Of a DNA stretch of 5,337 bases, positions 1,108 to 5,285 are shown piece by piece. Origin of the DNA: a virus (taxonomy: Duplodnaviria; Heunggongvirae; Uroviricota; Caudoviricetes); the IMG/VR virus record IMGVR_UViG_2548876943_000007, one strand, 5' to 3'. Position 1 is the first letter of the stretch. Every line of letters begins with the position of its first letter. A program made the translations under genes and the position numbers. A model generated the notes under the pieces. The model did no database searches, was not told the origin of the DNA, and saw only the letters and a list, made by a program, of their open reading frames with translations.

Positions 1108-1476
1108 TTAGTCAGCGAAGGTTAAGACGAGAATTACCTTAATGATGTCTGCTACAACAGACACGGCCATAGATAAACCAAAGACGATCCAAGCCACAGT
1201 GATGTCTTCACTACCATCGTATAGAGTTCCGTAATCACTGGTGTAAGGCGTAAATGTCGCGCCTTGATACAATAGGTATAAGCTTGATCCATAGAGGATA
1301 AATGCAGATATCCCTTGTATTGCTATGATCACCAGAATCATGAAACGAGCTGATCTATGCGCCCAAGCCTGGCTTATTTTTTCTGATAGAGATTTCGCAA
1401 TAAAAGCATGCGCTAAGCCGTAAATTGTCGAGATTGCCAACATCCCAAAAAAGCTTGCTATAGCGGTTCCAACCAT
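1108..1476 (-). CDS. Small integral membrane protein (122 aa, about 3 predicted TM helices), co-oriented with and immediately downstream of cI; candidate lysogen-expressed exclusion or defence protein
   Basis: ORF track 1108..1476 (-). Three long hydrophobic stretches (about residues 2-27, 45-70, 93-119) flank an acidic and aromatic loop (TPYTSDYGTLYDGSEDIT). RBS AAGGGGG lies about 7 nt upstream of the ATG. Only 18 bp separate the cI stop from this start, which implies co-transcription from pRM. It occupies the slot between cI and pL that lambda uses for rexA-rexB. No sequence family recognised. Confidence 0.7.
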   Translation of the reverse strand: MVGTAIASFFGMLAISTIYGLAHAFIAKSLSEKISQAWAHRSARFMILVIIAIQGISAFILYGSSLYLLYQGATFTPYTSDYGTLYDGSEDITVAWIVFGLSMAVSVVADIIKVILVLTFAD

Positions 1477-2317: not shown

Positions 2318-2512
2318 ATGATTCGAATGACACTTGCCGATTACGCCAAAATCCATGGACAGGCTAAAGCAGCCAGTGACTTTGGTGTAATCCAGTGCGC
2401 TATCAGCAAGGCCATTCTGGCAGGCCGTAACATTATGGTTACGGTAAAGCCTGATGGCAGTGTGATTGGAGAGGAAGTTCGTCCTTTCCCAAGCAACAAG
2501 AAAAACAAATAG
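2318..2512 (+). CDS. cro: Cro-like repressor (64 aa from ATG 2318; the ORF track begins at an upstream in-frame GTG at 2312)
   Basis: Translation [64 protein letters not shown] closely resembles lambda Cro ([59 protein letters not shown]) as recalled from memory. GGAG at 2306-2309 lies 8 nt before the ATG at 2318. Divergent from cI. Confidence 0.9.
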
Positions 2513-2518
2513 TAACAC

Positions 2519-2563
2519 CGCTCTTTAACAGTCATGGTCCTCATTCCCGCCGAAATGCGGGAA
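2519..2563 (+). promoter_or_regulatory. nutR site: boxA CGCTCTTTAACA (2519-2530) and boxB hairpin TTCCCGC-CGAAAT-GCGGGAA (2544-2563)
   Basis: boxA matches the consensus. A perfect 7-bp stem with a 6-nt loop follows 13 nt downstream. The same hairpin occurs in inverted orientation at nutL. Location between cro and cII matches lambda nutR. Confidence 0.85.
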
Positions 2564-2569
2564 TACAAC

Positions 2570-2600
2570 GCGCATAAGTTGATGCGCATAACTTCTTATT
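2570..2600 (+). terminator. tR1-like hairpin (GCGCAT-AAGTTG-ATGCGC, 2570-2587) followed by a U-rich tract (AUAACUUCUUAUU)
   Basis: A 6-bp GC-rich perfect stem with a 6-nt loop directly downstream of nutR and upstream of cII, followed by a moderately U-rich tail. This is the position of lambda tR1, which N antitermination overrides. Confidence 0.4.
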
Positions 2601-2620
2601 AGTTAAGGAAATACTTACAT

Positions 2621-2899
2621 ATGCAACTTACAAGTACTCGCAAGAAAGCGAATGCAATTACAAGCAACATCCTGAATCGAATTGCTGTACGTGGTCAGCG
2701 AAAGGTTGCCGACGCGTTAGGGATTAATGAATCGCAAATTTCGCGATGGAAAGACAGCTTCATCCCCAAAATGGGAATGCTTCTTGCTGTTCTTGAATGG
2801 GGTGTTGAAGACGAGGAGTTGGCGGAACTGGCTAAGAAAGTAGCCAGAATGCTGACAAAAGAAAAAGCCCCGAAGAACGGCGAATTCTTCGAGGCCTGA
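2621..2899 (+). CDS. cII: CII-like transcriptional activator (92 aa)
   Basis: ORF track 2621..2899 (+). Segment ESQISRWKDSFIPKMGMLLAVLEWGVEDEELAELAKKVARMLT closely resembles lambda CII (KSQISRWKRDWIPKFSMLLAVLEWGVVDDDMARLARQVAAILT) as recalled from memory. AAGGA lies upstream of the ATG. Position after cro and nutR. Confidence 0.9.
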   Translation: MQLTSTRKKANAITSNILNRIAVRGQRKVADALGINESQISRWKDSFIPKMGMLLAVLEWGVEDEELAELAKKVARMLTKEKAPKNGEFFEA

Positions 2900-2933
2900 T
2901 GTAGAAAGACTGGATCAATCCACAGGAGTAATT

Positions 2934-3095
2934 ATGACAAAACGTCGTAAGAAATACCAGGAAAAAGAAGAGATTCGACACCCTGATTCACCTGAGGGAT
3001 TAGTGGTAGCCGCAGCAAATAACAGGGCGTTCGCAGAGCGCCTTGTTGGTGTTTACAGACTAGCCAAAGCAGGAGTGAAACATGGGCGTCGTTAA
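2934..3095 (+). CDS. Small basic hypothetical protein (53 aa) between cII and O, overlapping the O start by 14 nt
   Basis: ATG at 2934 preceded by AGGAG (2924-2928) at 5-nt spacing. Translation [53 protein letters not shown], stop TAA at 3093-3095. Absent from the ORF track only because it is shorter than the track's length cutoff. No family recognised. Confidence 0.5.
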   Translation: MTKRRKKYQEKEEIRHPDSPEGLVVAAANNRAFAERLVGVYRLAKAGVKHGRR

Positions 3096-3912
3096 GTTAG
3101 CTGATTACAGGCCTCAACTGGAGGTCGTGGAGCATCGCGTGGCAGAACTCGAAGATGGCTACACTCGGACTGCAAACACACTGTTAGAAGCCGCCATGCT
3201 TTCTGGACTTACTCTACATCAGTTACTGATTGTTATGGCTGTGTGGCGCAAGACATACGGTTACAACAAAAAAATAGATTGGATCGGAAACGAACAGTTC
3301 GCTGAACTCACTGGCATGGCACCAACCAAATGTTCTACCGCCAAAAACGAGCTTATCAGAATGGGAGTTCTCATTCAGGTGGGGCGTCAAGTTGGTATGA
3401 ATACAAACATTTCAGAGTGGAAAACGAAAGTTAACGGATTTGGTAAAACATTTACCAAATCGGTAAAACAAACCTTCACTAAATCGGTAAAAAGCAATTT
3501 ACCGAATCAGTCAAACACAAAAGACAATATACAAAAGACAATAAATACAAATACCCCCTTACCCCCTAACGGGGGCGGCGATGGGCAGGTTAAACCTGAA
3601 CGTCGCAAGGCAGAACGAATCGACTACGAATCCTTCCTGAACGCCTACAACGCCGAAGTCGGTGACAGACTGCCACACGCTGTTGCGGTCAACGAGAAAC
3701 GCAAACGCCGCCTGAAGAAAATCATCCCGCAACTGAAAACGCCAAATGTGGACGGTTTCAGAGCGTATGTCAGGGCGTTTGTGCATCAGGCCAAACCGTT
3801 TTACTTCGGAGACAACGACACGGGCTGGACGGCTGATTTTGATTACCTGCTGAGGGAAGACTCGTTAACGGGAGTTCGGGAAGGGAAGTTTGCAGACAGG
3901 GGGATTGCATGA
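3082..3912 (+). CDS. O: Replication initiator, lambda O-like (276 aa), with the origin embedded in the coding sequence
   Basis: ORF track 3082..3912 (+). N-terminal region [15 protein letters not shown]...[45 protein letters not shown]...NISEW resembles the lambda O origin-binding domain as recalled from memory. A central low-complexity linker ([47 protein letters not shown]) is encoded by the iteron and AT-rich DNA. The stop overlaps the helicase start (ATGA at 3909-3912). Confidence 0.9.
3439..3580. repeat. Candidate origin of replication: dyad iterons (3439-3459 TTTGGTAAA-ACA-TTTACCAAA; 3484-3505 TCGGTAAA-AAGCAA-TTTACCGA; GGTAAAA repeated at 3442, 3462, 3485), an AT-rich tract with tandem CAAAAGACAATA (3508-3553), then a GC-rich CCCCC...GGGGG element (3554-3580)
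   Basis: Directly visible repeated and inverted GGTAAA/TTTACC motifs inside the O-like gene, followed by an A-rich region and a GC-rich dyad. This is the same layout as lambda ori (iterons, AT-rich region, palindrome) inside the O gene. Confidence 0.8.
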
Positions 3913-5285
3913 GACAGGATATCGAAGCGAGCGTTATCGGTGGCCTGCTGATTGGTGGATTAACTCCAACCGCCAGTGACGTTCTGGCAACGCTTGAGCC
4001 GGAAGCGTTTTCAATTCCGCTCTACAGGAAAGCCTTCGAGGTTATCCGCAAGCAGGCGCGAAACAGAAACCTAATCGACGCGCTGATGGTTGCCGAGGCG
4101 TGCGGAGAGGAGCATTTCACGTCAATCCTGATGACCAGCAAAAACTGCCCGAGTGCCGCAAACCTGAAGGGATATGCCGGAATGGTCGCGGATAACTATC
4201 ACCGCCGTCTGGTGCTGGAAATCATGGATGAAATGCGTGAACCAATTCAGAGCGGAACCATCGACGCATCGAGTCAGGCGATGGACGAGCTTGTAAAGCG
4301 TCTTTCAGCCATCAGAAAGCCCCGTGACGAGGTTAAACCTGTACGGTTAGGGGAAATCATCACCGACTACACTGACACGCTTGACAGGCGTCTGAGGAAC
4401 GGAGAAGAGTCAGATACCCTGAAGACCGGAATCGAAGAACTTGACGCCATCACCGGAGGGATGAACGCAGAAGACCTGGTGATTATCGCCGCTCGTCCTG
4501 GTATGGGGAAAACCGAACTGGCGCTGAAGATTGCCGAAGGTGTTGCAAGCCGCGTTATTCCTGGTTCTGACGTCAGGCGCGGAGTGTTGATTTTCTCGAT
4601 GGAAATGAGCGCATTGCAGATTGCAGAGCGAAGCATTGCCAACGCCGGGAGGATGTCGGTTAGCGTGCTACGAAATCCTGCATCGATGGATGACGAAGGC
4701 TGGGCACGTGTTGCTAACGGCATGAGTCAGCTTGCAGATTTGGATGTATGGGTAGTCGATGCCTCGCGGTTATCGGTAGAAGAAATTCGCTCAATCGCAG
4801 AGCGGCACAAACAGGAAAATCCAAACCTGTCACTCATCATGGCGGATTATCTTGGCCTGATTGAGAAGCCGAAAGCAGACCGCAACGACCTCGCAATTGC
4901 TCACATCTCAGGAAGCCTTAAGGCGATGGCGAAAGACCTGAAAACGCCAGTTATCTCCCTGAGTCAGCTTTCGCGCGATGTTGAGAAGCGACCAAACAAA
5001 CGCCCGACAAACGCAGATTTGCGTGATTCAGGAAGCATTGAACAGGACGCAGACTCAATCATCATGCTCTATCGGGAAGCGGTATATGACGAGAACAGTA
5101 GCGCCGCACCATTTGCTGAAATCATTGTGACGAAAAACCGTTTTGGCTCGCTTGGTACGGTTTACCAGCGGTTCTGCAACGGACACTTTGTTGCATGTGA
5201 CCAGGATGAAGCCAGACAGATTTGCACAGCATCAAATGCACCTGCTGCGCGTGGCAGACGATATGCACAAGGGGCTGACGTATGA
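3909..5285 (+). CDS. Replicative DNA helicase, DnaB family (458 aa; P22 gene 12-like)
   Basis: ORF track 3909..5285 (+). Walker [15 protein letters not shown], Walker B-like [10 protein letters not shown], and [39 protein letters not shown] matching the DnaB motifs (SQLNR...[17 protein letters not shown]) as recalled from memory. Translationally coupled to the O-like gene. Confidence 0.95.

Follow-up and report, generated by a model that had tools for sequence, protein, structure and literature searches.

A conserved 53-codon gene overlapping the start of the O-like initiator gene is a probable first cistron of the replication module in many lambdoid phages of the Enterobacterales

The window analysed here, that is the whole stretch of 5,337 nucleotides from IMG/VR record IMGVR_UViG_2548876943_000007, spans immunity and replication genes of a lambdoid phage or prophage. 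Its closest sequenced counterparts are the E. coli phages HZ41 and vB_EcoP-611R6, which match with ~98% identity over ~85% of the window. Genes for an N-like antiterminator (229-534) and a cI-type repressor (1495-2211) are encoded on the minus strand. The plus strand carries cro (2318-2512), a gene for a cII-like transcriptional activator (2621-2899; PF05269, E 2e-42), a short ORF of 53 codons (2934-3095; ATG at 2934 and stop codon TAA at 3093-3095) that has the cII-like gene as its upstream neighbour, a gene for an O-like replication initiator with a body like that of P22 gp18 (3082-3912; PF04492, E 4e-36) and a gene for a DnaB-like replicative helicase (3909-5285), which we count as the third gene of the replication module. 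The O-like gene contains three direct repeats of ~23 nt at 3446-3515 (AAACATTTACCAAATCGGTAAAA and variants), followed by an A-rich stretch; by analogy with lambda and P22, these iteron-like repeats are likely to be the replication origin. Directly downstream of cI and on the same strand, in the position occupied by rexA and rexB in lambda, is a gene for a predicted membrane protein of 122 aa (1108-1476, minus strand). This protein matched PHROG 6534 (unknown function; E 2e-79), had no match in Pfam, NCBIfam or PADLOC, and is a candidate for a lysogen-expressed exclusion or defence gene.

The focus of this study is the 53-codon ORF, which the original prediction had described accurately in all its anatomical details. 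The frame runs from 2934 to 3095, is preceded by a Shine-Dalgarno sequence AGGAG (2924-2928, plus strand) located 5 nt upstream of the ATG, and overlaps the start of O by 14 nt (ATGGGCGTCGTTAA; 3082-3095, plus strand). The O-like gene has a Shine-Dalgarno sequence of its own, also AGGAG (3071-3075, plus strand), which is situated 6 nt upstream of the O ATG and within ORF codons 46-48 (A-G-V). A lysine/arginine-rich N-terminus had been claimed for the product and is present, reading MTKRRKKYQEKEE; the protein as a whole is basic, with a pI of 10.7 and a mass of 6.1 kDa.

The start region of the ORF is shared with lambda O. The sequence CAGGAGTAATTATGACAAA of the window matches CAGGAGTCATTATGACAAA of lambda in the Shine-Dalgarno sequence, the spacer and ATGACAAA, and the opposite strand carries the same TGTCATAAT -10 element and oop start. 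In lambda this region opens O itself, whereas in the window it opens the 53-codon ORF, and a second Shine-Dalgarno sequence serves O, which comes next. The expectation that lambda has no gene at this position was correct, because in lambda a gap of only 32 nt separates the end of cII (38653) from the start of O (38686). Alignment of the minus strand with lambda and P22 identified TTTGTCATAAT-TACTCCTGTGGATTGATCCAGT as the conserved 33-bp p_O/oop segment, which is labelled 'bsq5' in the Sf6 annotation; the lambda O start region with p_O and oop constitutes a 33-bp conserved 'boundary sequence 5' (PMC3349717). Alignment with the lambda and P22 annotation also placed the extended -10 element of the oop promoter p_O (TGTCATAAT) at 2931-2939 on the minus strand, where a simple promoter scan had missed it. 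Thus, the complement (CAT) of the ATG of the ORF is part of the oop -10 element.

Transcription from p_O is predicted to give an OOP-like antisense RNA of ~68 nt (2856-2923, minus strand), whose 3' part overlaps the end of cII. The terminator hairpin of this RNA (2897 to 2865, minus strand), which also overlaps the end of cII, is followed by a T-run, and the stretch from 2923 to 2856 on the minus strand folds with an energy of -27.2 kcal/mol (z -5.6). The predicted 5' end at 2923 was placed by analogy with the start of lambda OOP and lies one base short of the Shine-Dalgarno sequence of the ORF. A scan of the whole window against Rfam (E up to 1) gave no match, indicating that neither oop nor the RNA hairpin inside the ORF, which is considered below, is a curated family.

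While the ORF had been put forward as unannotated, this part of the original prediction fails. The same protein is encoded by HK97 as gp53 and by Sf6 as gp42 (both 100% identical over 53 aa), by epsilon34 as gp49 (98%) and by ES18 as gp58 (94%), and the gene is annotated in these four phages and in many others. The product matched PHROG 1331 ('unknown function') with an E-value of 1.4e-37, residues 1-53 aligning with positions 1-53 of the 53 in the profile. Searches with tblastn detected the protein in 97 phage records, 61 of them with 100% identity, and found relatives with 75-79% identity in Cronobacter, Erwinia and Enterobacter phages. The ORF is also carried by 940 of 5426 complete E. coli genomes, and among the E. 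coli matches listed the PGAP label was 'hypothetical protein'. In HK97, Sf6, ES18 and epsilon34 the gene occupies the same slot after cII and oop and has a 14-nt overlap with an O-like gene, there being no substantive difference from the window; a layout with the ORF before the initiator is likewise seen in the annotations of HK97, Sf6 and Erwinia phage 49. The order cII-oop-'orf'-O-P was set out by Hayes et al. 2012 (PMC3349717), and the ORF corresponds to their "orf" slot. These authors noted that the orf of P22 is naturally absent from lambda and presented an alignment of 23 phages in which numbering starts at an ATG, this being the start codon of lambda O, of a homologue of P22 orf48 or of a homologue of HK97 gp53 (Hayes et al. 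2012; PMC3349717). The observation of an ORF at this site is therefore correct yet not new, as the gene has already been catalogued as conserved and hypothetical and its position has been treated in the literature.

The original prediction had proposed that conservation of the frame and the balance of synonymous and nonsynonymous change be examined across related phages, and both analyses spoke for a gene. An intact frame of 52-55 codons was present in 244 of 245 related loci. All of the 20 diverged loci, which range from Cronobacter to Serratia, Rahnella and Brenneria, had an ATG-started ORF of 52-55 aa, preceded in nearly all of them by a GGAG/GAGG-like motif, and searches of bacterial genomes and viral contigs contributed loci from Edwardsiella, Yokenella, Citrobacter, Chimaeribacter, Serratia, Rahnella and Brenneria. 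In the one remaining locus of the 245 (L215; IMGVR_UViG_3300012248_000001, ~1201-1400) the ORF is fused in frame to O (...FRLALSHQEVSMGVARLEDYRKPPGEVVEHRV...), a fusion that may be natural or may stem from an error in assembly.

Insertions and deletions within the ORF were always multiples of three, and entropy among 19 diverged sequences was 1.29 bits at codon position 3 as compared to 0.29-0.48 bits at positions 2 and 1. For the central, non-overlapping part of the ORF, dN/dS was 0.11 among the 19 diverged homologues, with synonymous change being saturated. This signal was specific to the frame. A six-frame test of these homologues found that frame 0 of the plus strand alone was without stops while the other frames had 15-44 stops each; dN/dS was 1.4-4.1 in four of the other frames, and was 0.20 in the sixth, an antisense frame sharing the wobble position, yet this frame contained 15 stops. 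A minus-strand ORF of 49 aa (2832-2981) was also considered and was rejected as the antisense frames gain 15-33 stops in homologues. Over the last five codons of the ORF, which also code for the start of O, dN/dS rose to 0.95 with a low dS, as dual coding predicts. The last ~9 codons are constrained by the start and coding sequence of O, and hence conservation of this segment is uninformative about the small protein.

A confounder of such an analysis is the potential for conservation to arise from other signals. The first ~10 codons are shared with p_O, the RNA hairpin takes up codons 31-37 and the last ~9 are shared with the Shine-Dalgarno sequence and coding sequence of O, such that conservation of the region could be due to the oop promoter, the hairpin and the O ribosome-binding site, with no protein gene being present. 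This explanation is strongly disfavoured and we find it scarcely credible, because the variation has a three-base periodicity, dN/dS is 0.11, indels occur only in frame, and frame 0 is without stops against 15-44 in every other frame. Moreover, codons 13-29 overlap no known signal and are conserved as amino acids while their wobble positions are free. The 53-codon frame is thus almost certainly a real protein-coding gene, and the substitution patterns show strong purifying selection on its product of 52-55 aa.

We examined the genes that flank the ORF in other genomes. The downstream gene was a replication initiator in all of 19 diverged loci, and the overlap between the ORF and this initiator was 14 nt in 18 of these loci and 17 nt in one. 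Across 102 loci the initiators formed four clusters, two of which are O-like (PF04492) and two of which are without a Pfam match, and all four clusters start with M-G/S/N/A-V-V/A-K... The gene after the initiator fell into eight clusters, mostly DnaB-like helicases of differing types. In the window the ORF is joined to an O gene with a body like that of P22 gp18 and to a gene for a DnaB-like helicase; other family members precede other initiator types. The upstream gene was usually cII-like. In some prophages (L004, L010, L017, L020, L007) the upstream gene instead encodes a YdaT-family protein (PF06254), a protein with a KilAC antirepressor domain (PF03374) or a 178-aa protein with weak similarity to the DNA polymerase III beta clamp.

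The boundaries of the conserved unit were apparent in 80 viral contigs encoding an identical protein. The DNA of the ORF in these contigs was identical to that of the window or one base off, and similarity to the window collapsed ~40-50 nt beyond the ORF stop in >90% of loci; on the cII side similarity was lost in part of the loci. The ORF is thus a near-identical DNA block flanked by mosaic junctions. The O protein of the window resembles P22 gp18 from residue ~11 onwards, the P22 protein having a different N-terminus (MSNLATVTPIK) that goes with Orf48. The combination of near-identical bodies with differing N-termini indicates a mosaic junction at about O codon 10-12, and the unit of exchange therefore consists of the ORF, the Shine-Dalgarno sequence of O and O codons 1-10. 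The first ten codons of the initiator (3082-3111, plus strand) are accordingly inherited with the ORF in front of four initiator types. The V-V-K-L pattern in this N-terminus presumably resembles the N-terminal ClpX recognition motif T-A-K-I of lambda O. Comparison of these gene neighbourhoods shows that the ORF belongs to the replication module and travels with the initiator rather than with cII. In many lambdoid phages and prophages of the Enterobacterales the ORF is the opening cistron of that module; to this placement together with the mechanism proposed below we assign a probability of roughly 0.6.

These linkage patterns bear on two of the functions that had been suggested in the original prediction, namely modulation of CII stability and moron cargo. 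For the former, the protein would act like CIII, as a small amphipathic-helix protein that shields CII from FtsH. The product is predicted to form an amphipathic helix, its 53 aa are near the size of lambda CIII (54 aa) and the ORF adjoins cII in the window. However, in some loci the ORF instead follows a YdaT-like, KilAC or clamp-like gene and cII is not adjacent, HK97 holds both cIII (gp44) and gp53, and none of 35 family members matched any Pfam family, Lambda_CIII (PF02061) included, even at an E-value of 10. Since the ORF stays linked to the initiator in loci that have a gene other than cII upstream, a role in CII stability is very unlikely. The proposal of moron cargo was unsupported and was ruled out on anatomy, as neither a sigma-70-like promoter nor a plus-strand terminator was found in 2500-3300 and the GC content across the ORF (0.42-0.52) was like that of the flanking genes.

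The protein itself was modelled with AlphaFold2 from an alignment of 35 sequences. Residues 1-19 were predicted to be disordered and charged and residues 20-29 and 31-46 to be helical, giving in essence one kinked helix of moderate confidence (mean pLDDT 68; 78-84 in the helix core). Eighteen residues are at least 95% conserved in 62 distinct proteins (E12, E13, P20, G22, L23, A27, N30, F33, A34, E35, R36, G39, R42, A44, G47, K49, R52 and R53). Among these, L23, A27, N30, A34 and A44 have a 3-4 spacing that puts them on a single face of the amphipathic helix in the model, and we infer that this face may be a protein-binding surface. The product had no match in Pfam, NCBIfam or PADLOC. A profile search of 1.84 billion representative proteins returned only 24 clusters (at 50% identity), all consisting of short proteins of the same family, and found no long or annotated relatives, while comparison with solved structures, by sequence profile against the PDB and by Foldseek with the AlphaFold model, gave nothing meaningful. 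Searches of the literature on gp53, orf48, DUF2740 and the cII-O gap found no functional study and no experimental evidence of translation or function. The family is small and is confined to the Enterobacterales and their phages.

A small, basic, early protein with so narrow a distribution (24 clusters) and no known fold could be a host-takeover or anti-defence protein that rides the early right operon and has a job unrelated to O, such as inhibition of a host defence or protease. Dispensability in lambda and replacement by an unrelated protein in P22 also form a pattern typical of accessory genes. We consider this rather unlikely given that a promoter or terminator belonging to the ORF was not found, that its GC content is ordinary and that PADLOC gave no match. 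Furthermore, the physical coupling to the start of the initiator gene stays the same for all four initiator types, whereas the location of accessory genes is usually variable.

Our best guess is that the ORF product is a small helical protein with an accessory role in the replication module and that its translation is coupled to that of O. The ORF would be transcribed from pR along with cII, O and the helicase gene. Ribosomes finishing the ORF would stop 11 nt past the ATG of O, beside the Shine-Dalgarno sequence of O, and these terminating ribosomes may feed or unmask initiation of O. Translational coupling of this type had been put forward on the basis of the overlap and is in our view probable, since the 14-nt overlap is conserved and an 8-nt overlap recurs in the unrelated Orf48 of P22. 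What stands against the claim is that O has a strong AGGAG of its own; this and the finding of weak structure around the O Shine-Dalgarno sequence (z -1.28 for 3020-3120), with no significant masking, suggest that coupling may not be required and may only modulate O expression. The protein would probably bind a partner common to all of these phages. Co-occurrence of the ORF with four types of initiator and several types of helicase suggests that this partner is something constant, and candidates are a host factor of replication or of proteolysis and the conserved N-terminal decapeptide of the initiator. Binding of this partner would tune the start of replication. An accessory role for the protein in replication, in line with the modulation of replication initiation that the original prediction had suggested, is a tentative proposal to which we give less than even odds. 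Lambda and P22 replicate without the protein, which is therefore not a core replication factor.

Comparison with P22 is informative as Orf48 (DUF2740, PF10872; 48 aa) is encoded at the equivalent place, with oop/c1 on one side and the initiator gene 18 on the other. Orf48 shares with the ORF a conserved start region that overlaps p_O and a stop that overlaps the initiator start, the overlap being 8 nt for Orf48 as opposed to 14 nt in the window. Homology between the two was rejected on an hhalign probability of 0.05%, and in Pfam searches with E-values of up to 10 DUF2740 matched none of the 35 members of the ORF family while Orf48 itself matched at 2e-28. Thus, two unrelated small proteins fill one slot.

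The filling of this slot by unrelated proteins could mean that the arrangement matters more than the protein. Precedents exist in tap of plasmid R1 and repY of ColIb-P9, which are short leader ORFs that overlap the start of a replication initiator and have an antisense RNA gene adjoining; their start region is where the antisense RNA binds, and the peptides are not conserved as proteins. The end of the window ORF likewise overlaps an initiator start, this overlap is conserved, and the promoter and RNA of an antisense gene adjoin the ORF start region. The ORF might therefore be a pure leader, whose translation delivers ribosomes to the O start or opens it under regulation by OOP RNA and whose peptide is functionless. 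Several features make this unlikely. In contrast to tap and repY, the window peptide is strongly conserved, with a frame-specific dN/dS of 0.11 at saturated synonymous change, 18 residues at least 95% conserved over 62 distinct proteins and indels that are always in frame. In addition, O has its own AGGAG with no significant masking structure (z -1.28). Finally, OOP in the window would be antisense to cII and not to the ribosome-binding site of the ORF, the Shine-Dalgarno sequence of which would not be covered by the predicted RNA, as the 5' end placed by analogy with lambda (2923) falls one base short. Selection on the peptide itself indicates that the ORF is not merely a leader.

A second and separable hypothesis concerns an RNA hairpin embedded in the ORF. 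This conserved hairpin (3025-3043, plus strand) has an 8-bp stem and a GCN triloop and coincides with codons 31-37 (R-A-F-A-E-R-L); in the window, folding extended the stem to 13 bp (3020-3048, about codons 30-38). Pairing in the stem was 84-86% in 19 diverged and then in 99 distinct sequences, as compared to 35-49% when the partner column was slid, and analysis of 99 distinct homologues with RNAalifold returned the inner stem (seven of the eight pairs) as the only consensus structure of the ORF. The amino-acid motif [RKQ]-[APS]-F-A-E-R-[LF] by itself dictates five of the eight stem pairs. When synonymous codons were randomised with the proteins kept (2000 trials), stem pairing was 76%, with a maximum of 79%, against an observed value of 96% for the 99 distinct sequences. 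The three informative pairs had observed frequencies of 0.96, 0.97 and 0.78 and expected frequencies of 0.44, 0.54 and 0.14. The first position of codon 32 (Ala/Pro/Ser), where changes are nonsynonymous, covaries with the wobble base of Arg36, where changes are synonymous, this pair being GC in 42 sequences, GU in 29, CG in 20, UG in five and broken in three. Parsimony on a neighbour-joining tree gave five pair-preserving double changes as opposed to three breaks, a rough count as these sequences recombine.

The hairpin ends 38, 41 or 44 nt upstream of the ATG of O. The frequency of G-U pairs in the stem points to a function as RNA in the rightward transcript, and a DNA palindrome is disfavoured because these pairs form on the plus strand only. 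A terminator was rejected as the U-rich stretch that follows the stem lacks conservation and is missing from the Orf48 family. The P22 Orf48 family (BK000583 ~1896-1917; loci L248-L327) contains an invariant 8-bp GC-rich hairpin, CAGCCTGG-N6-CCGGGCTG, which ends 39 nt upstream of the gene 18 ATG, a distance similar to that in the window ORF family. Among 54 distinct sequences of this family, the wobble positions of the stem are invariant and those of the loop vary, a pattern that is suggestive only as the sample is little diverged. Partial coincidence of the most conserved peptide motif with the hairpin of the window ORF implies that some of the constraint in this segment is on the RNA. It is possible, if doubtful, that the small ORF is the carrier of an undescribed cis-acting RNA element, for which stabilization of the mRNA, processing or tuning of O initiation are candidate roles.

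Here we have clarified the status of a very common early phage protein, encoded by roughly a sixth of the complete E. coli genomes, Stx-converting prophages included, as the product of a real gene that is part of the replication module rather than of the lysis-lysogeny switch. The ORF sits exactly where synthesis of the initiator starts, beside the oop antisense RNA, and may provide lambdoid phages with an extra layer of control over the synthesis or activity of O that lambda lacks. If the embedded hairpin is a functional element, translation of the ORF would melt it, and both could set the stability of the O mRNA or the rate of O initiation. Together, hairpin and ORF would then constitute a new control point in lambdoid replication.
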